Source of the DNA: an uncultured Bacilli bacterium
GTDB taxonomy: Bacteria; Bacillota_I; Bacilli_A; RF39; UBA660
DNA length: 64,000 nt
Assembly (NCBI GenBank): GCA_934098395.1
Contig: CAKOOM010000001.1
Location: 340,896 to 404,895 of the forward strand
Direction: 5' to 3'
This document shows, piece after piece, positions 6,566 to 58,488 of the stretch (its first letter is position 1; every line of letters begins with the position of its first letter). The translations under genes were made by a program, and so were the position numbers. Under the pieces are notes generated by a model that saw nothing but the letters and a program-made list of their open reading frames with translations, searched no databases and had not been told where the DNA came from.

Positions 6566-7153
6566 ATGACAAATGAATTGTTAGCAAGAATTGATTTGTT
6601 TGAAAAAGAAAACAAACAATTAAAAGAGAAACTATCTAAAATAGAAACATTAATAATAAACCATAATTGCGATACTGGTGATATTTATTATAAGTATAAT
6701 AGCAGATTTTTAAAAAGTGAATTAAAACAAAGAATATTAGAGATAGTATATGAAGAAGAAAGTGGGAGTAATAAAGCTAAAGATGAAAATAAAGAATTAA
6801 AGAAACAACTTGAAGTAGGAGAAGAACAATATAATGATTTAATAGAAGAAAAAGAGATTTTACAAGAGCAACTATCAATTAAAACTTTACAGTTGGAAGA
6901 ATTAAAGGAACAAGTAAATAAGGGATTATACAATATTTGTATGCCATATACAACTGGTTATAATAAAGCAACGAAAGATAAAGAAACTCAACAAAAAGAG
7001 TTTATAAATTATTTAGAAGATTTAATAAAACAAAATGAAACAGTTGTTGAAGTATCAAAATATGGATTACCTAAAAATTGTTCTAAATTATTAATAGATT
7101 TTTATAAAGAAATTTTACAAAAATATAAAGAAATAATAGGAGATGATAAATAG
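6566..7153 (+). CDS. hypothetical coiled-coil phage protein
   Basis: 195-aa ORF; TAAATG junction. Confidence 0.45.
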   Translation: MTNELLARIDLFEKENKQLKEKLSKIETLIINHNCDTGDIYYKYNSRFLKSELKQRILEIVYEEESGSNKAKDENKELKKQLEVGEEQYNDLIEEKEILQEQLSIKTLQLEELKEQVNKGLYNICMPYTTGYNKATKDKETQQKEFINYLEDLIKQNETVVEVSKYGLPKNCSKLLIDFYKEILQKYKEIIGDDK

Positions 7154-7776
7154 TGATAAAAAAGGAAATATATCCTAAAACAAAAAGAGTTAGCTGTAAA
7201 GGTAATAAAGTATATATTACGGAAAAGTTGGATGGAAGTAATTTAGTATTTTTTAAAAAGAATAATGAATTATATATAGCTCAAAGAAAAAGTATATTTA
7301 AAATAAGTGAATTAGAAGAAGTGAAAGACATTTTATACAAAGGATTATATCAATGGCTGATTGATAATAAAAACGTTTTAATTGATGAATTACATGATAA
7401 CAGTGCTATTTGTGGCGAGTGGCTAGGAATGGGTTGTTTGAAATACAACATTGATGAATTTGACAAGAGATGGTATATGTTTGCAAAAGCAAATATAGAT
7501 GATGATTATAATTTATATAATTTAATTTACAATCATGATTTGTTTATTTATCCATTTGTAAATCAACAAATACCTAATTTTATTGGTGTAGTTCCTGAGG
7601 TAATAGAATTAGTGAATATACCAAATAAGGAACAGTTAGATAGTATTTACGAAAAATATCAAAGCAAAGTAAAAAGAAATGTTGAAGGATTTGTTATCAA
7701 CTACAACAACGATATTACTAAATATGTCAGAATGAAAAATGGTAAATTACAAGAGCATTTTGATAGAGGAGAGTAA
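7153..7776 (+). CDS. RNA-ligase-family nucleotidyltransferase (ATP-dependent RNA/DNA ligase-like, PF09414-type)
   Basis: GTG start. Ligase motifs in order: I TEKLDGSN (KxDGxN), III ICGEWLG, IV EGFVIN, V KYVRMKNGK. Confidence 0.6.
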   Translation: MIKKEIYPKTKRVSCKGNKVYITEKLDGSNLVFFKKNNELYIAQRKSIFKISELEEVKDILYKGLYQWLIDNKNVLIDELHDNSAICGEWLGMGCLKYNIDEFDKRWYMFAKANIDDDYNLYNLIYNHDLFIYPFVNQQIPNFIGVVPEVIELVNIPNKEQLDSIYEKYQSKVKRNVEGFVINYNNDITKYVRMKNGKLQEHFDRGE

Positions 7777-7780
7777 AAAG

Positions 7781-8083
7781 TTGAAAGTAAAAAGGAAAAC
7801 ATTTAGATACAATGATGACTATTTTGAATTCTATGATAGAAATAAAAACAAGATAAACATAATATCATTAAAAATATTAGCAGATAAAATAGTGTTAGAG
7901 TATGAGGAGTTAATTGATGACAAAGAAAGATATAAAGAATTAAAAACAAAACTAGCAGCAACAACAGATAATAGACAATTAATGATAGCTGAATTAAATA
8001 AGAGAGAAAAACAGTTGAACTGTCCTTATAAGAATAGGAGATATACAGAGGAAGAATTACAAAAGATACTAAAAGGGGTGTAA
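7781..8083 (+). CDS. hypothetical phage protein (probable TTG start after AGAGGAGAG RBS; ORF track lists 7739)
   Basis: RBS spacing; the upstream portion overlaps the ligase gene. Confidence 0.4.
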   Translation: MKVKRKTFRYNDDYFEFYDRNKNKINIISLKILADKIVLEYEELIDDKERYKELKTKLAATTDNRQLMIAELNKREKQLNCPYKNRRYTEEELQKILKGV

Positions 8084-8086
8084 TTA

Positions 8087-8506
8087 ATGTATTTAGAATA
8101 TCATGAATTATTGAAAAAATTTAAAAAAGCAGAAAAAAATTACAACGAAGCACTAGAAAAGAAAAGTGAGTTAATACTATCAGTAATGCCAGGAGCAGTT
8201 AAACCAAAAGAAGTTATAACAACTAGCAATACTTCACCAGACACTAATTTAATTGATTACACAAGTGAAATAGATGAAGTTGATAGATTAATCAATCAGA
8301 GTAGAAACACACGAGATATGCTAAATTATGAGTTAAAGAAGAAGTTAATTAAGATGAGAGAAGAAGGAGATGTATATGACAAGATATACATTTATCGATG
8401 GATAGAACATAGATCTGTTTATAAGTTTTATCGTTTAGTTGGCTACAGTGTTAGACAAACATATAATTATATTGAAGAAATGAAAGAAAAATTGTATAAA
8501 AATTAA
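8087..8506 (+). CDS. putative late-gene transcriptional activator (ArpU/RinA-like)
   Basis: Last early-type ORF before the terminase block; C-terminal region YIYRWIEHRSVYKFYRLVGYSVRQTYNYIEEM resembles sigma-region-4-like HTH of phage late activators. Confidence 0.4.
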   Translation: MYLEYHELLKKFKKAEKNYNEALEKKSELILSVMPGAVKPKEVITTSNTSPDTNLIDYTSEIDEVDRLINQSRNTRDMLNYELKKKLIKMREEGDVYDKIYIYRWIEHRSVYKFYRLVGYSVRQTYNYIEEMKEKLYKN

Positions 8507-8508
8507 AA

Positions 8509-8528
8509 TTGCACAAAATTGCACAAAA
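8509..8528. repeat. tandem direct repeat 2 x TTGCACAAAA
   Basis: Exact 10-bp duplication immediately after the regulator stop codon. Confidence 0.8.
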
Positions 8529-8529
8529 T

Positions 8530-8768
8530 TAGGTATACACTAGTATCGTGAGAAAATAAATAATTCACACATAATACCTAACACTATCTTAACAGTTGGG
8601 TTACTAATACCATAGCCTTAGTGAAGGCAAGTCTTGATAGTGAGCTATAGACTACCTTCTATGGAGAACTCACTTTATGGTATTGTTATACTATCTTTAA
8701 TAGATAGTGTACTGATGATATAAGTCTGGTGTACAGGTGGCTAATAGAATAGTTTGTTAGTATACCTA
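8530..8768 (+). ncRNA. candidate structured non-coding element (four properly nested helices) in the 420-bp gap upstream of the terminase block; may instead be a cos/packaging DNA structure
   Basis: Complementary pairs: 8530-8538/8760-8768, 8581-8588/8703-8710, 8606-8615/8675-8684, 8639-8644/8669-8674. Local GC is visibly higher than the surrounding DNA. No ORF. Confidence 0.35.
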
Positions 8769-8857
8769 TTCAAAAGCACCTTAAAAAAGTAAAACTAACA
8801 TTTACCGTTATGTCATTAGTACAGTATTTACTAAAACGAAACATATAACTTCCTTTA

Positions 8858-8884
8858 CGAGAGACTAATAGTCTCTTTTATTAT
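8858..8884 (+). terminator. rho-independent terminator
   Basis: AGAGACT-AAT-AGTCTCT followed by TTTTATT. Confidence 0.6.
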
Positions 8885-8930
8885 GCAAATATCCTCAATA
8901 GAGAATTAAATATAGCAAAGGGGTGATCAT

Positions 8931-9329
8931 ATGAAAGAGGTCACTAAACTATTAATCAATGATTTTAAGATTAAACAGTTGAACTACGACTTTATGGGCT
9001 ATTCTCTGCAAAAGGGAGATATATATACATTTCATCATTTCTTAGTAGCCAATAGAAATAACGGTCCATATACTTACTGGAATGGTGTGATATTGTGTGG
9101 TAAAACTTCACATCCATATTTACACTTGATAGAAAGCAAAGATGAAGATAGATTCTATGATATAACAAGTGAGTTTTTGGATATGAAGAACAAAGGATAT
9201 TTAGATATAGAAAACTTAAGATACATAGATGCTATATTAGCAAGTTTTGAAAGGGAATATTGCGGTAAGAGAAGTAAAAAAGGAAAGATATTAATAAAAG
9301 AAGAATATACAAAAAGGGTAAAATTATGA
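8931..9329 (+). CDS. putative HNH-family endonuclease (terminase-associated)
   Basis: TFHHFLVANRNNGPYTYWNGVILCGKTSHPYLH resembles an HH..N..H HNH core; positioned directly upstream of terS. Confidence 0.45.
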   Translation: MKEVTKLLINDFKIKQLNYDFMGYSLQKGDIYTFHHFLVANRNNGPYTYWNGVILCGKTSHPYLHLIESKDEDRFYDITSEFLDMKNKGYLDIENLRYIDAILASFEREYCGKRSKKGKILIKEEYTKRVKL

Positions 9330-9508
9330 ATTGGAATAAATGTATGAAAAATTTTAATTGCAAAGTATGTAGTGATTACAATTATTGCAAAGATGAAATT
9401 TTAAATAAAAAAAACAAAAAAACAAGAAGACAAACTTGTATAAAAATAGGAAGTGATAATGATGGCTTTAAACATAAAACAAGAAAAATTTATTCAAAAC
9501 ATAGTTAA
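9326..9508 (+). CDS. small Cys-rich protein (60 aa)
   Basis: ORF track; overlaps the terS start. Confidence 0.3.
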   Translation: MNWNKCMKNFNCKVCSDYNYCKDEILNKKNKKTRRQTCIKIGSDNDGFKHKTRKIYSKHS

Positions 9509-9875
9509 AGGTATGAGTCAAAGAGAAGCATATAAAGATGCTTACAATGCTAAATACAAAGATGAAGTTATAGATGTTAGGGCTTGCGAGTTATTTAATT
9601 CTAGTAAGGTTCAGGTAAGGTATAAAGAGATTATGGTTCAATTAGAAGATAAAACTATTATGAGTGCTAAAGAACGTATGAAATGGTTAACCGAAGTTGT
9701 AAAGGGAATACAAACAAATACAACTTATGGCGAAAACGGGCAAGAATACGAAAATGAAGCATATATAAGCGATAAAATGAAAGCAATCGATTTATTAAAT
9801 AAAATGGATGGTCAATATGTTCAAAGATTTGAAGCAGATTTAGATTTCAATATAAGAGTTGAATTAGATGACTAA
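9453..9875 (+). CDS. terS: terminase small subunit
   Basis: AGGAAG RBS; N-terminal LNIKQEKFIQNIVKGMSQREAYKDAYN typical of terS; ATGA overlap with terL. Confidence 0.75.
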   Translation: MIMMALNIKQEKFIQNIVKGMSQREAYKDAYNAKYKDEVIDVRACELFNSSKVQVRYKEIMVQLEDKTIMSAKERMKWLTEVVKGIQTNTTYGENGQEYENEAYISDKMKAIDLLNKMDGQYVQRFEADLDFNIRVELDD

Positions 9876-11370
9876 AGAAATAAAAATATCAATATCGAAA
9901 AAAGTATTTAATGATGTATATATACCTTATTTAGATAATATAAGCAGATATTTGATATTTTATGGTGGCGCTGGTAGTGGAAAGTCTTTCTTTGTTGTTG
10001 AAAGATATATATATAAAATACTTAATTCAAAAATGATGAACCTATTGACAGTTCGTGCTACTGGTAAGAGCAACAGAGATAGTACATTTGCTTTGTTTAA
10101 GCAAGTTATTAATAAATGGCACTTAGGTATGCACTTCAAAATAAATGAAAGTGATCTAAGAATAAAGTGTTTACTTAATGGCAATGAAATAATATTTAGT
10201 GGACTAGATGATGTTGAAAAGTTAAAATCAGTAACTTTTAGCAAAGGAGAACTTACTGATATATGGATAGAAGAAGCTTCTGAAATACTAGAAAGTGATT
10301 TTAATCAATTAGATGTCAGATTAAGAGGTAAAGGAACTAAAAAACAAATAGTTATATCTTTTAATCCAATTGATATTAATCATTGGTTAAAAAAGAAGTT
10401 CTTTGATGTACCAAGAGATAATTTAACTATAGTACATACAACATATAAGGATAATAAGTTCTTAGATGAAGATTATAAGAAGTTACTAGAAAGTTATAAG
10501 TATACTGATGAGTATTATTATAATGTGTACTGCTTAGGTCAATGGGGTGTTCTAGGAAAGACTGTATTTGATGCGAGAGCAGTAAGCAGAAGATTGCAAG
10601 AAATAACTAGACCAATCAAGACTGGTTATTTTGAATATAAATATGATGATACAATGCCTATTGGAAAGAAGATTACTGATGTAAAATGGGTAAACGACGA
10701 AAATGGTTATATAGAACTATATGAATTGCCTAACCTATACAAATATTGTGTAGGTGGTGATACTGCTGGTGATGGCTCTGATTGGTTTACCGGACACGTT
10801 CTTAATGCTAAAACAGGTAAACAAGTTGCAAGGTTAAGACATCAGATGGATGAGGATTTATATGTAAGGCAAATGTATTGTTTAGGCTGGTATTATGCTA
10901 ATAAGAACTTAAAAACTGGTGTAGTAACACCTGCTCTTATGTGTATTGAAAGTAATTTTAGTAGTTTTCCTAATAAAGAATTAGTACGATTAGGTTATCC
11001 TAATATGTTCGTAAGGGAGAAAGAAGATAGATATACAGGTGTAATGGACAAGTCTTATGGATTCAAAACCACTTCATTAACAAGACCTGTTATAATAGCA
11101 GAACTAGTTAAAATAGTTCGTGAAAATGTTGAATTAATAAATGATAAATTAACACTTGAAGAAATGCTAACTTTTGTCAGAAATGAAAAGGGAAGACCTG
11201 AGGCACAGCAAGGAGCACATGATGATTTGGTTATGGGGCTTGCTATAGCCTATTATTCAAGGACACAAGTAGTATTTGATGTTGAACCGATAAAAGTAAG
11301 TCAAGTATTTAACTTCAAGTCAGAAGAGCCACTAGAGGCTGATTATGGAGAGGAGATAGTGATCATATAA
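9868..11370 (+). CDS. terL: terminase large subunit (PBSX / Terminase_6-type)
   Basis: Walker A YGGAGSGKS; 500 aa; conserved C-terminal nuclease Asp residues. Confidence 0.9.
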   Translation: MTKEIKISISKKVFNDVYIPYLDNISRYLIFYGGAGSGKSFFVVERYIYKILNSKMMNLLTVRATGKSNRDSTFALFKQVINKWHLGMHFKINESDLRIKCLLNGNEIIFSGLDDVEKLKSVTFSKGELTDIWIEEASEILESDFNQLDVRLRGKGTKKQIVISFNPIDINHWLKKKFFDVPRDNLTIVHTTYKDNKFLDEDYKKLLESYKYTDEYYYNVYCLGQWGVLGKTVFDARAVSRRLQEITRPIKTGYFEYKYDDTMPIGKKITDVKWVNDENGYIELYELPNLYKYCVGGDTAGDGSDWFTGHVLNAKTGKQVARLRHQMDEDLYVRQMYCLGWYYANKNLKTGVVTPALMCIESNFSSFPNKELVRLGYPNMFVREKEDRYTGVMDKSYGFKTTSLTRPVIIAELVKIVRENVELINDKLTLEEMLTFVRNEKGRPEAQQGAHDDLVMGLAIAYYSRTQVVFDVEPIKVSQVFNFKSEEPLEADYGEEIVII

Positions 11371-11806: not shown

Positions 11807-13516
11807 ATGATGGATTTAAACGAAGTAAAAGAAACTGATATATGGGAGCTATATGAAAGAGGTAGAAATTATAATCGACTAAAAGGCCTATATTCAGATA
11901 CTGATAAAAATTATAGAATGTATAATGGTAATCAATGGGCTGGATTAAAGATCAGCGGAATAGAACCCATTCAATTAAATATAATAAAGCCAATAATTAA
12001 GTATAAAGTCGGAGTAATCAACAATAATATGTATTTACCTGTGTTTAGTGCTGAAAACTTTGAAAATAAAGAGTTTAAAGATGTAGCAAATAAAACCTGT
12101 GAACTTCTTAATAAACTAGCTGCTAAAGTATGGGAAAAAGACAATATGGACTACAAAACAAGAGCAATAAGCAAACATTCTGCTATTAATGATGAGTGCC
12201 CAATTTATGTTGACTATGATGAGAAGGCAAATATGCCACAAAATGAGATATTATCAAAGAACGATGTATATTATGGCAATGAGAACGATTCAGATATACA
12301 GAATCAGCCATATATTTTAATTAAGCATAGAAAACCAGTTATTAATACTATTGAAATGGCTAGATTATCAGGAGTGTCAGAGGACAAACTTAGGTATATA
12401 GTTGGTGATAATGATACTTTTGAAGAAGCTGGAGAAGACTCTAGAGAAGAAAAAGATGATATGGTAACTATTATTACTAAACTATATAAAGAAAATGGTA
12501 CAGTCCATTTTAGTCAAGCAACAAGATATTGTGATATAAAAGAAGACAAAGACACAGGGCTTACACTTTATCCACTAGAGCACATGCTTTGGGAAGAAAA
12601 AGAAGGATATGCTCGAGGAGAAGGTGAAGTCAGATATTTAATACCTAACCAGTTAGAAATTAATAAGACTATAATGAGAAGATTAATATCTGCAAAAACT
12701 ACCGCTTATCCACAAAAAATTGTTGATATATCTAAAATACAAAATCCTAATGCAATAGACAAAATTGGTGGCACTATTAAAGTTAATGGTATAAATGTAG
12801 ATGATGTTAAGAAGGCAATTGGAGTTCTTCAGCCAGCGCAAATGAGTGCAGATGTTGAAAAGGTAATGAATGAATTAATATCTACTACTAGAGAATTAGC
12901 TGGTGCTGGAGATATTGCTACTGGTGATGTTAATCCGGAAAGTGCGAGTGGTAAGGCAATATTGGCAGTACAGCAAGCATCACAGATGCCAGTAACTGAA
13001 CAAACATTGTCATTAAAGACCACTTTAGAGGGATTAGCAAGAATTTGGTTAGATATGTGGAAGACATATGCTACCGATGGCTTAGTAATAGACTATGAAG
13101 AATCCAATCCTGCTACTGGTGAAGTAAGTTCTAGACCAGTAAAAGTACCTTATAGTGTATTACAAGAATTACAAGCAAATGTAAAGATAGATATTACACC
13201 AAAGAGCCCTTATGATAAATATGCTCAAGAATTATCACTTGAGAATATGTTAAAGGCAGGATACTTTACTGCTGAAAGATTAGCAGAACTAGAAGTATAT
13301 GTAAGTCTATTAGATGATGACAGTTCAATGCCTAAATCTAAGTTAGAAGAAGCAATAAAGAAAATGAAAGAATCTCAGCAAAGAATAGCAGATGTTCAGA
13401 CAAAGGCTCAAGAATTGCAAATGAAAGCTAATAAATTTATCGCTAATCAACAAGATATAACTGGCATAGGACAATATGGAAATCAATTAATTAATCAAGC
13501 AATGACTACACAATAG
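11807..13516 (+). CDS. portal protein
   Basis: AGGAGGTGAC RBS; 569 aa, directly downstream of terL. Confidence 0.8.
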   Translation: MMDLNEVKETDIWELYERGRNYNRLKGLYSDTDKNYRMYNGNQWAGLKISGIEPIQLNIIKPIIKYKVGVINNNMYLPVFSAENFENKEFKDVANKTCELLNKLAAKVWEKDNMDYKTRAISKHSAINDECPIYVDYDEKANMPQNEILSKNDVYYGNENDSDIQNQPYILIKHRKPVINTIEMARLSGVSEDKLRYIVGDNDTFEEAGEDSREEKDDMVTIITKLYKENGTVHFSQATRYCDIKEDKDTGLTLYPLEHMLWEEKEGYARGEGEVRYLIPNQLEINKTIMRRLISAKTTAYPQKIVDISKIQNPNAIDKIGGTIKVNGINVDDVKKAIGVLQPAQMSADVEKVMNELISTTRELAGAGDIATGDVNPESASGKAILAVQQASQMPVTEQTLSLKTTLEGLARIWLDMWKTYATDGLVIDYEESNPATGEVSSRPVKVPYSVLQELQANVKIDITPKSPYDKYAQELSLENMLKAGYFTAERLAELEVYVSLLDDDSSMPKSKLEEAIKKMKESQQRIADVQTKAQELQMKANKFIANQQDITGIGQYGNQLINQAMTTQ

Positions 13517-57579: not shown

Positions 57580-58488
57580 ATGGATAATTTAATAATAGGG
57601 TGTCATGTTGGTTTTAATAATAAGACACAGTTAGTAGGTAGTGTAATGGAAGCTGTTAGTTATGGGGCTAATACTTTTATGTTTTATACAGGAGCTCCAC
57701 AGAATACGAATAGATTACCTATTAATAATAATTTAACAAATGAAGCTTATAAAATAATGGAGGATAATGGAATAGATTTATCTAAAGTGATAGTACATGC
57801 ACCATATATAGTTAATCTTGGTAATTTAGATAAGTTTGATTTTTCAGTTAATTTTTTGATTGAAGAAGTAAAGAGAATAGCTAAGTTAGGGATAAAATAT
57901 ATGGTTTTACATCCGGGAGCTTATGTTAAGTATGAGAGAGAAGATTCGATTAATTCAATTATTGATGGGTTGAATATTATTCTTGATAATGAAATGGATG
58001 TAACTATTTTGCTTGAAACTATGGCTGGTAAGGGAACAGAGATAGGTAGTAACATGGAGGATATTAAAAAAATTATTATGGGGGTTAAATATAAGGAAAA
58101 GATAGGGATATGTTTAGATACTTGTCATTTATTTGATAGTGGAGTTGATATGAATAAGTTTGATGAATACTTAGATTTGCTTGATAGGGAAATTGGAATT
58201 AATTATATTAAGTGTATTCATGTTAATGATTCGAAGAATATGATAGGCAGTCATAAGGATAGGCATGAGAATATTGGTATTGGGAATATTGGTTTTGATA
58301 CGCTTATTAAGATTATATATAATGATAGGCTTAAGGATATTCCTAAGATATTAGAGACACCTTATGTAACACGAGAAGATGGTAGTAAAGAGAAGGTTTA
58401 TCCGCCATATAAGATAGAGATAGAAATGATTAGGAATAAATGTTTTTATGATGATTTAATAGATAGAGTAAGGGAAGAATATAAGTAA
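57580..58488 (+). CDS. nfo: endonuclease IV (AP endonuclease family 2)
   Basis: TIM-barrel motifs HAPYIVNL, LHPGA, His/Asp/Glu metal ligands. Confidence 0.8.
   Translation: MDNLIIGCHVGFNNKTQLVGSVMEAVSYGANTFMFYTGAPQNTNRLPINNNLTNEAYKIMEDNGIDLSKVIVHAPYIVNLGNLDKFDFSVNFLIEEVKRIAKLGIKYMVLHPGAYVKYEREDSINSIIDGLNIILDNEMDVTILLETMAGKGTEIGSNMEDIKKIIMGVKYKEKIGICLDTCHLFDSGVDMNKFDEYLDLLDREIGINYIKCIHVNDSKNMIGSHKDRHENIGIGNIGFDTLIKIIYNDRLKDIPKILETPYVTREDGSKEKVYPPYKIEIEMIRNKCFYDDLIDRVREEYK

Follow-up and report, generated by a model that had tools for sequence, protein, structure and literature searches.

The locus considered here raises the question of how transcription would reach the late genes of a gut prophage across 424 nt of DNA (8507–8930) that lie between a small regulator gene and the terminase block and that contain, as a preliminary description of the sequence had stated, no open reading frame (ORF) of at least 30 amino acids on either strand. 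The window, i.e. the whole stretch of DNA that was analysed, is 64 kb long, and its control region is taken as 8505–8930. In our reading, to which we give a probability of roughly 0.6, this would be the control region of the late operon, in which a regulator-bound promoter is followed by a structured leader RNA and by a terminator that is read through, combining a cassette of the RinA/Ltr type with a geometry like that of the phage lambda Q system.

The relatives used for comparison were found via the 139-amino-acid protein encoded immediately upstream of the gap, and comprise 39 loci from IMG/VR, eight from metagenome-assembled genomes of uncultured gut Bacilli, 'Tenericutes' and Clostridiales, and 45 from metagenomes, with regulator proteins that are 41–99% identical to that of the window. 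In about 90 of these relatives the small gene occupies the same position, at the end of the early or replication module and directly before the terS–terL–portal block. The viral relatives have a non-coding gap of about 115–610 nt after the regulator gene (L033 excepted), followed by several unrelated types of terS, and the gap appears from this arrangement to be a mosaic boundary that is itself conserved. The 424 nt gap of the window is identical in two further contigs bearing an identical regulator, among 22 such contigs, and a search for DNA similarity of the gap to known phages gave no match.

Regulator and tandem repeat

The first two elements are the regulator gene and the repeat that begins at its end.

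8087–8506, + strand: late regulator of 139 amino acids, composed of a long helical hairpin and, at the C-terminus, a helix–turn–helix domain of three helices, with the recognition-helix region at about residues 121–130 (SVRQTYNYIE)
8505–8528, + strand: tandem direct repeat with cores TTGCAC at 8509–8514 and 8519–8524, each flanked by A4 tracts; putative binding site of the regulator

The AlphaFold2 model of the regulator has a pLDDT of 82. No match to the window protein was obtained from Pfam (E up to 10), NCBIfam (E up to 1) or PHROG; the models of RinA (TIGR01636), ArpU and DUF1492 were not matched, no Pfam match of any kind pointed to the Q protein families, hhalign against RinA of phage 80alpha gave a nonsignificant probability of 0.8, and a fold search returned coiled-coil matches only. 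A profile search with the regulator gave 121 cluster representatives, and 90 of these distant family members include matches to sigma70-ECF (18), Sigma70_r4_2 (6), HTH_23 (16), DUF1492 (7) and phage_rinA (1). The label of late regulator given to 8087–8506 at the outset is supported by the present analysis, and the protein appears to represent a new family that resembles sigma region 4.

The 10-mer duplication is exact, as first described, and can be written either as two copies of AAAATTGCAC at 8505–8524 or as two copies of TTGCACAAAA at 8509–8528. It is present in a single copy in the window. Both copies change together between phages, with the cores TTGCAC, TGAGAC, TCGGAC, TGGCAC, TGTCAC and TCGGAA, and across 87 loci these six core variants correspond one-to-one to six variants of the recognition helix, compared at the start of the last helix.

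Helix S[VI]RQxY[NY]: repeat core TTGCAC
Helix [ST]VRQxYR: repeat core TGGCAC or TGTCAC
Helix SRPQVYR: repeat core TGAGAC
Helix SK[TS]QVYD: repeat core TCGGAC
Helix SLSRTYD: repeat core TCGGAA

Linkage alone hardly explains this match, because proteins that are 87–88% identical to that of the window and carry other repeats have their differences concentrated in residues 121–130 (6/17 and 5/18; p = 2e-4 and 4e-3), whereas proteins that are merely 65–74% identical retain both the recognition helix and TTGCAC. The tandem repeat is thus predicted to be the operator to which the 139-amino-acid regulator binds.

The A4 tracts recur every 10 nt across 8505–8533 (AAAA-TTGCAC-AAAA-TTGCAC-AAAA-TTAGG), in phase with the helical repeat, which predicts intrinsically bent promoter DNA. 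In L001, which was found through the downstream ORF, a different protein of 149 amino acids is encoded upstream of a homologue of the 132-amino-acid ORF that follows the gap in the window and is followed (2480–2530) by three direct repeats AAATCTTG with a period of 10–11 nt; pairwise alignment of its gap of about 480 nt to that of the window gave no homology, and the arrangement suggests the same design with another regulator.

A predicted promoter at a fixed distance from the repeat

Immediately downstream of the repeat lie two hexamers and a hairpin.

8536–8549, + strand: −10-like hexamers TACACT (8536–8541), the putative −10 box of the late promoter, and TATCGT (8544–8549), which overlaps the predicted start
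8548–8568, + strand: HP1, the 5'-terminal hairpin of the leader, in which GUGAG (8548–8552) pairs with UUCAC (8564–8568); predicted start at G8548

In all 44 distinct sequences the second repeat core is followed after exactly 11 nt by a TAnnnT hexamer (TACACT, TACAAT, TATAAT, TATGAT and others), and in all 44 a second TAnnnT begins 2 nt after the first, at −4 to +2 of the putative promoter. A purine is always present 7 nt after the first hexamer. The repeat is tied to this −10 box and not to the stop codon of the regulator gene: it overlaps the last codons in some phages and lies 165 nt away in L051, where the spacing of 11 nt nevertheless holds. A hairpin begins at the predicted +1 or at most one base from it in 34 of 38 distinct relatives, with stems that are unrelated in sequence and intermediates that are G.U pairs. 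From the fixed spacing, the constant purine and the hairpin at +1 we infer a regulator-dependent promoter that has the repeats between about −39 and −24, 8536–8541 as its −10 box and a start at about 8548. The second hexamer, TATCGT, may serve as an alternative −10 box or as a sigma-dependent pause element.

Hairpin modules of the leader RNA

The predicted transcript consists of HP1, two tandem hairpin modules and a terminator, and its elements are as follows.

About 8548–8884, + strand: leader RNA of 337 nt
8581–8689, + strand: hairpin module 1, with orphan strand ACACUAUCU (8581–8589), degenerate 3' arm of HP2 (8594–8601), stem P3-1 (8602–8614/8676–8688) and cargo (8615–8675)
8690–8708, + strand: hairpin HP2 of module 2, with ACUAUCU (8690–8696), loop UUAAU and AGAUAGU (8702–8708)
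8709–8723 and 8808–8822, + strand: long-range stem P3-2 of module 2, enclosing the hypervariable cargo 8724–8807
8823–8835, + strand: strand 3, the conserved motif AGUAUUUACUAAA, which pairs with 8696–8708 (HP2 loop and 3' arm) and so lengthens P3
8849–8856, + strand: pyrimidine block CUUCCUUU, which shortly precedes the terminator and is visible in the aligned gaps

The best-supported helix of the region, 8709–8723/8808–8822, was missing from the preliminary description. Its alignment was anchored on the end of the small palindrome and on the motif AGUAYUUAYUAA, and the strands adjoining these anchors pair in register in 47 distinct sequences. The covariation in related phages that had been named as a check on a structured RNA is present: changes on both sides are found at 13 of the 15 pairs of P3, with 92.7% of cells paired, and at 4 of the 12 pairs of its extension (8696–8708/8823–8835), with 94.9% paired. 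For P3 and its extension together 93.7% of cells are paired, against 30–54% when the partner strand is slid by 1–3 columns, and their covariation score was reached by none of 500 shuffles. RNAalifold independently yields the same helices, with compensatory changes at 15 of 23 pairs. The non-Watson–Crick cells of P3 comprise 68 G.U and one A.C on the + strand, an asymmetry by which the leader stem appears to be selected as single-stranded RNA of that strand. A structured RNA, as originally suggested, is thus supported by evidence other than that first given for it (P3 covariation, RNAalifold and the G.U bias). The folding-energy z-score of the predicted transcript 8548–8884 is −5.35, and the whole gap has z-scores of −3.6 (+ strand) and −2.7 (− strand). 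Perfect inverted repeats in the gap exceed those of shuffles only modestly, two- to three-fold (7 versus 3.5 expected for 8-mers and 3 versus 0.9 for 9-mers).

HP2 is kept in nearly all relatives, with compensatory arms (ACTACCT/AGGTAGT, ACTATCT/AGATAGT, ACTACTT/AAGTAGT and ATTACCT/AGGTAAT) and with G.U pairs as the only intermediates. Since the nucleotides of its loop and 3' arm also pair with 8823–8835, HP2 and the P3 extension are mutually exclusive; in the window the conformer with HP2 and P3 has a predicted energy of −84.6 kcal/mol compared with −87.1 kcal/mol for the minimum free energy (MFE) fold, a gap of about 2.5 kcal/mol. The cargo enclosed by the stem varies among relatives from about 20 to 140 nt in length and is unrelated in sequence between phages. 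Each module appears from these comparisons to consist of a conserved stem of about 27–30 bp (P3 plus extension) around an unconstrained variable loop, with HP2 competing at its base.

The five complementary pairs listed in the preliminary description all exist (9/9, 8/8, 9/10, 6/6 and 8/9), but they do not form one domain of four nested helices. In the first (8530–8538/8760–8768), the 5' arm falls within the promoter block that precedes the start and the 3' arm within hypervariable sequence; this helix crosses P3-2, lacks comparative support and is probably due to chance. The second (8581–8588/8703–8710) is a cross-module pairing of the orphan strand of module 1 with the 3' arm of HP2 of module 2, the third (8606–8615/8675–8684) is part of stem P3-1, and the fourth (8639–8644/8669–8674) is a hairpin of the module 1 cargo. 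The suggested switch survives in altered form: the alternative hairpin 8688–8696/8702–8710 is the conserved HP2, and it competes with the P3 extension formed with 8823–8835.

In L055 and L056, the closest relatives, AATACCTAACACTATCT runs directly into HP2, and the window carries 107 extra nt at this point. A first assignment of 8590–8696 as a window-specific insertion was replaced, once these relatives had been aligned, by that of module 1, and the extra 107 nt appear to be a diverged tandem copy of the module. As read from the sequence, P3-1 and P3-2 are three compensatory double changes apart; the cargo of module 1 measures 61 nt and has two predicted hairpins, including the fourth helix mentioned above, and the MFE fold predicts a Y-shape for this module. 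No second copy of module 1 was found in the window or in the loci, no second copy of the module, cargo or motif was found in the window, and an exact 22-mer from module 1 was not found in IMG/VR. Tandem modules occur also in L055, L128, L170 and L191, and a module is located between head genes in L102 and L194.

Two Rfam 15 scans of the window, one of them on 361 nt with lax filters, gave a best score of 19.8 bits against thresholds of 45–80, and a scan of 20 related loci returned tRNAs only. The hairpin module appears to be an RNA motif absent from Rfam, with strong covariation support, in abundant human-gut prophages. Its near-perfect stem of 27–40 bp suggests a processing or stability element of the RNase III type or a folding insulator, and this assignment is the weakest step of the interpretation. 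A hammerhead ribozyme, considered from CUGAUGA after HP2, was rejected, as this strand varies freely (CAGAGUAG, UAGAAUAG, CAACGAUAG) yet keeps its pairing. A covariance model built for the stem without its cargo misaligns real loci owing to the large loop and was excluded from counting; the stem model also matched 57620–57730 weakly (15.4 bits, E 0.8), in a segment with UUAGUAGGUAGUGUA that is part of a coding ORF (57580–58488) in the bacterial part of the window, and this match was taken as chance. Scanning IMG/VR with an HP2 pattern gave nine true modules among 120 matches, which is too unspecific for counting but revealed the other contexts.

In the MFE fold an outer pairing GUUAUA/UAUAAC (8684–8689/8843–8848) extends the hairpin of module 2; L047 and L054 have UUUAUA/UAUAAA at these places, a compensatory change, and L055, L056 and L046 are without the 3' segment. 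At the place of the pyrimidine block the gaps of L032, L034 and L039 have CCUCCUUU or AUCACCUCCUUUC after a hairpin, resembling the 3' end of 16S rRNA (anti-Shine–Dalgarno-like), and in read-through transcripts the block could pair with the strong Shine–Dalgarno sequence GGGGUGAU (8920–8927) of the first late gene.

The terminator and its companions

8859–8884, + strand: intrinsic terminator with stem GAGAGACU/AGUCUCUU, loop AAU and tail UUAUUAU (stem 8859–8877 plus T-run)

The hairpin and T-run noted earlier at 8858–8884 are confirmed and are conserved in relatives. The stem has 8 bp with three G–C pairs, a loop of 3 nt and a U-rich tail, present on the + strand only, as expected for an intrinsic terminator, and it is the sole terminator-like site in 7000–10500. 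A terminator is found in nearly all relatives, with covarying stems (GACAC/GUGUC, GAGAC/GUCUC and GAGCC/GGCUC) and the tail UUUUAUUAU. The first start codon follows the stem end after 18–35 nt in most relatives and after 53 nt in the window, a spacer that is essentially the U-run and the Shine–Dalgarno sequence.

All that remains in L084 is the repeat with its −10 box and, after about 16 nt, the terminator and ribosome-binding site. L046 lacks HP2, P3 and cargo, and L051 retains only a downstream hairpin, yet both keep the repeat, the −10 box, the terminator and the ribosome-binding site. Because these three loci have lost modules and kept the other elements, the repeat, promoter, terminator and ribosome-binding site appear to travel together, with the hairpin modules as accessories. 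As the terminator lies between the promoter and the late genes, late transcripts from a repeat-proximal promoter must pass it, and late transcription probably reads through it.

A proposed route of late-operon transcription

In the mechanism that we propose, the regulator would bind the repeats at about −39 to −24, substituting for a −35 element, and would thereby switch on the promoter that starts at about 8548. RNA polymerase would then transcribe the leader of 337 nt and would have to pass the terminator at 8859–8884 in order to reach the HNH-like ORF, terS, terL, the portal gene and the rest of the operon. In a Q-like manner, the terminator would block early read-through, and polymerase loaded at the regulator-bound promoter would read through it; this would be the most economical reading because promoter and terminator are kept together even in L084, with its leader of about 16 nt. 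The long double-stranded stems would be optional accessories of the leader, most likely RNase III-type processing or stability elements or folding insulators, which is the weakest step of the scheme.

Several points weigh against this proposal. Start site, promoter and passage of the terminator are predictions from sequence. Fewer than 150 nt separate the repeat from the recognition helix, and linkage could account for part of the match between them. No Q family is matched by the regulator, and RinA not significantly. The relatives are metagenomic and mutually related, and covariation counts overstate the number of independent events. The modules are dispensable, as seen in L046, L051 and L084, and the cargos are no more structured than shuffles (mean z −0.5), on which ground a functional structured cargo was dropped. 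No conserved pairing was found by which the HP2 switch would be coupled to the terminator; an anti-terminator pairing of the freed HP2 strand with the terminator, looked for by eye, amounts to a 6 nt match in L009-type loci that is absent from the window and from L032, and was dropped. The conserved terminator tail UUUUAUUAU contains TATTAT, a possible −10 box, and mapping of the RinA-dependent 5' end of phi11 and 80alpha, in RNA treated to remove processed ends, placed it past the terminator and 23 nt upstream of terS (PMC3152322), which favours a second promoter downstream of the terminator.

These last two observations carry an alternative that we consider unlikely, in which there would be two transcription units. 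The repeat-proximal promoter, or early read-through, would make only a non-coding RNA of about 340 nt that ends at the terminator, as a 3' untranslated region (UTR) or a small RNA, and the late operon would have its own promoter overlapping the terminator tail, with its TAnnnT hexamer, activated at a distance as proposed for RinA, which needs sequences more than 155 bp upstream (PMC3152322). The leader would indeed be also the 3'-UTR of the regulator gene, a role that had been suggested for the gap and that is compatible with the terminator scan, in which none was found between the stop codon and 8859. However, the distance from the repeat to the putative tail promoter ranges from about 60 bp in L084 to more than 400 bp, whereas that from the repeat to the first −10 box is invariant, and the 18–35 nt between stem end and start codon would leave a 5'-UTR of about 10–15 nt and no −35 region outside the terminator stem.

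It is still less probable that the inverted repeats act as DNA, whether as a pac or cos site, as a recombination site or as a miniature inverted-repeat mobile element in the leader. The site adjoins the terminase genes, modules occur in tandem (in the window, L055, L128, L170 and L191) and between head genes in other phages (L102 and L194), the duplicated ACTATCT around module 1 resembles a target duplication, and conserved arms with exchangeable cargo fit recombination-driven mosaicism. The pairing, however, is strand-asymmetric: the 68 G.U against one A.C in P3 and the G.U-only intermediates of HP2 count against sites in duplex DNA, and only against these, since a hairpin of single-stranded DNA tolerates G.T. 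One and the same type of repeat or cargo accompanies different terS families, modules are missing from L046, L051 and L084, and the single locus per genome found here makes a dispersed mobile element of the MITE or BOX kind unlikely. TerL of the PBSX type and a P22-like portal are typical of headful packaging, whereas an HK97-type terminase with an HNH partner would be expected for cos, and the cos or packaging DNA offered in the preliminary description as an equal alternative to a structured RNA is not supported. That the complementarity of the nested helices is due to chance in DNA that is AT-rich and non-coding, with a function limited to spacing, is very improbable and largely refuted for HP1, HP2, P3 and the terminator, which are conserved across regulators that are 41–65% identical and of which the covariation with its slid controls, the RNAalifold result and the transcript z-score speak for structure, but it agrees with the two- to three-fold excess of short inverted repeats and the shuffle-like folding of the cargos and is the best reading for the first of the helices originally listed.

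Comparison with known systems

Members of the Ltr superfamily (RinA, ArpU and LtrA–C; Ferrer 2011; Quiles-Puchalt 2013) are activators of about 140 amino acids encoded just upstream of terS; direct repeats right after the activator gene are necessary and specify the working activator, the intergenic region is mosaic, and when the activator is missing read-through is blocked by a terminator that lies between ltr and terS (PMC3753634, PMC3152322). No explanation was given for the more than 155 bp that separate the RinA site from the mapped 5' end (PMC3152322). The window shares with this cassette a protein of about 140 amino acids that ends the early module directly before terS, specificity-giving direct repeats just after its gene, with allelic regulators accompanying allelic repeats (in the window a correspondence by sequence), a mosaic region past the repeats, a terminator between the regulator gene and terS and a sigma-region-4-like C-terminus. 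The rinA–terS gap of 80alpha (L220, 1422–1607) has the same order of elements: TGGCAG(T) in two copies, TAAAAT at about 11 nt, a hairpin (GUAGGAUA/UAUCUUAC), a strong terminator of 10 bp and, 45 nt further on, terS. The window differs in that its protein falls outside the RinA, ArpU and DUF1492 models and is not significantly related to 80alpha RinA by hhalign, and in having two cores of 6 nt with a period of 10 nt in place of two to four repeats of 7 nt. Its leader has covariation-supported hairpin modules, of which PMC3753634 and PMC3152322 make no mention, and comparative data place its −10 box beside the repeats, whereas the published model puts the promoter downstream of the terminator. 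The region thus appears to be a cassette of the RinA/Ltr kind that is unrelated in sequence to the known members.

With the lambda Q, pR', 6S RNA and tR' system the window shares a regulator gene directly upstream, a regulator site within the promoter (putative in the window), a −10-like element repeated at the start of the transcribed region and a short non-coding transcript that is ended by an intrinsic terminator with the late genes behind it, this last point being a matter of geometry only in the window. It differs in that its regulator has no homology to any Q family and read-through is a deduction, and in that the second −10-like box is offset by 8 nt and overlaps +1 instead of lying at +1 to +6 or later. 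Lambda 6S RNA is not known to be structurally conserved, unlike the leader of the window.

The RNase III sites of T7 and lambda and the BOX, ERIC and Correia elements are imperfect stems of 25–40 bp with G.U pairs, modular in nature and located in non-coding stretches of operons, and some long-hairpin elements are arrayed or have a variable middle (boxA-boxB(n)-boxC). The hairpin modules resemble them in being long, imperfect, modular stems in a non-coding stretch of an operon, but they have no sequence relation to them and are distinguished by conserved arms, a hypervariable loop, the competing HP2 and a single locus per genome.

The cabRNA of RinA-type phages is a structured, RNase III-sensitive late RNA of the terminase region that is sensed by CBASS cyclases, and an escaper phage makes a longer RNA that starts in rinA (Banh 2023). 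Like the leader, it is a structured RNA from the terminase region of phage late genes, but it lies within the terS/terL coding sequence and is without conserved sequence or a covariation model, whereas the element of the window is non-coding and lies upstream of terS.

Significance

The mechanism of RinA/Ltr activation has been puzzling since 2011, with repeats far from the mapped terS start and a terminator between them. A wider and more doubtful reading is that sigma-region-4-like regulators, RinA and Ltr included, act at a promoter abutting their repeats with read-through of a terminator, and that the hairpin module defines a new class of RNA element in phages. If this were true, Q-like antitermination would exist in a protein family unrelated to Q, remote activation would not be the mode of action of the small late regulators of Gram-positive phages, and the puzzle of a binding site more than 155 bp from the start would be resolved. 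The module would be a bistable, arrayable double-stranded stem of about 30–40 bp with a hypervariable loop and a late-infection function of its own, for instance in programmed processing of late transcripts by RNase III or as a decoy for sensors of double-stranded RNA in the host.

The gut-phage family forms a natural deletion and swap series, with six operator/helix alleles, leaders of 16 to about 380 nt and modules present, absent or duplicated. It speaks for a promoter that is fused to the repeats and for transcription that has to pass the terminator, and makes the question of activation versus antitermination testable on a minimal template of about 100 bp such as that of L084. The one-to-one code between helix and operator would provide orthogonal regulator/operator pairs, and the hairpin module carries a conserved two-state junction.

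Flanking genes and further observations

The left flank consists of a run of small + strand genes that ends in an RNA-ligase-family gene (7153–7776) and the regulator gene. The ligase gene (PF09414, E 4e-12) precedes the regulator by two genes and is present also in the identical contig L221. The right flank has the following order, with a Cys-rich ORF of 60 amino acids between the first late ORF and terS.

8920–9329, + strand: Shine–Dalgarno sequence GGGGUGAU (8920–8927) and first late ORF (8931–9329), 132 amino acids with an HH..N..H..H motif
9453–9875: terS (Terminase_2)
9868–11370: terL (Terminase_3/PBSX)
11807–13516: P22-like portal gene

The late block continues on the + strand to about 30.5 kb and is followed by bacterial genes, so the locus is that of a prophage, the host of which is an uncultured, low-GC human-gut member of the Bacillota. 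The GC content of the gap (0.31–0.33) is above that of the upstream flank (0.26–0.29), but the difference is small and the value is close to that of the downstream ORF, which limits the higher GC reported earlier to one side; the loss of the coding purine skew is a clearer compositional signal of the gap than the rise in GC.

The HNH label that had been given to the first late ORF is unconfirmed: the 132-amino-acid product has no match in Pfam, PHROG or NCBIfam, and its similarity to the HNH domain of IscB is at the level of the motif and nonsignificant (E 0.65), with the residues HH..NG..H..YLH invariant. This ORF is optional, many relatives going from the terminator straight to the small Cys-rich ORF or to terS, and in L208 it is located upstream of the leader instead. 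The Cys-rich ORF (9326–9508, CxxxxCxxC..C), which has no family match, overlaps the end of the preceding ORF and is in many relatives the first gene after the terminator, just before terS.

A tRNA gene is present in the leader region of L031 (3733–3806), L034 (3687–3758), L035 (910–982) and L038 (2162–2233). In L031, L034 and L035 it stands directly after the terminator and before the late genes, and the anticodon loop reads CAU, by eye, in the tRNAs of L031 and L034.

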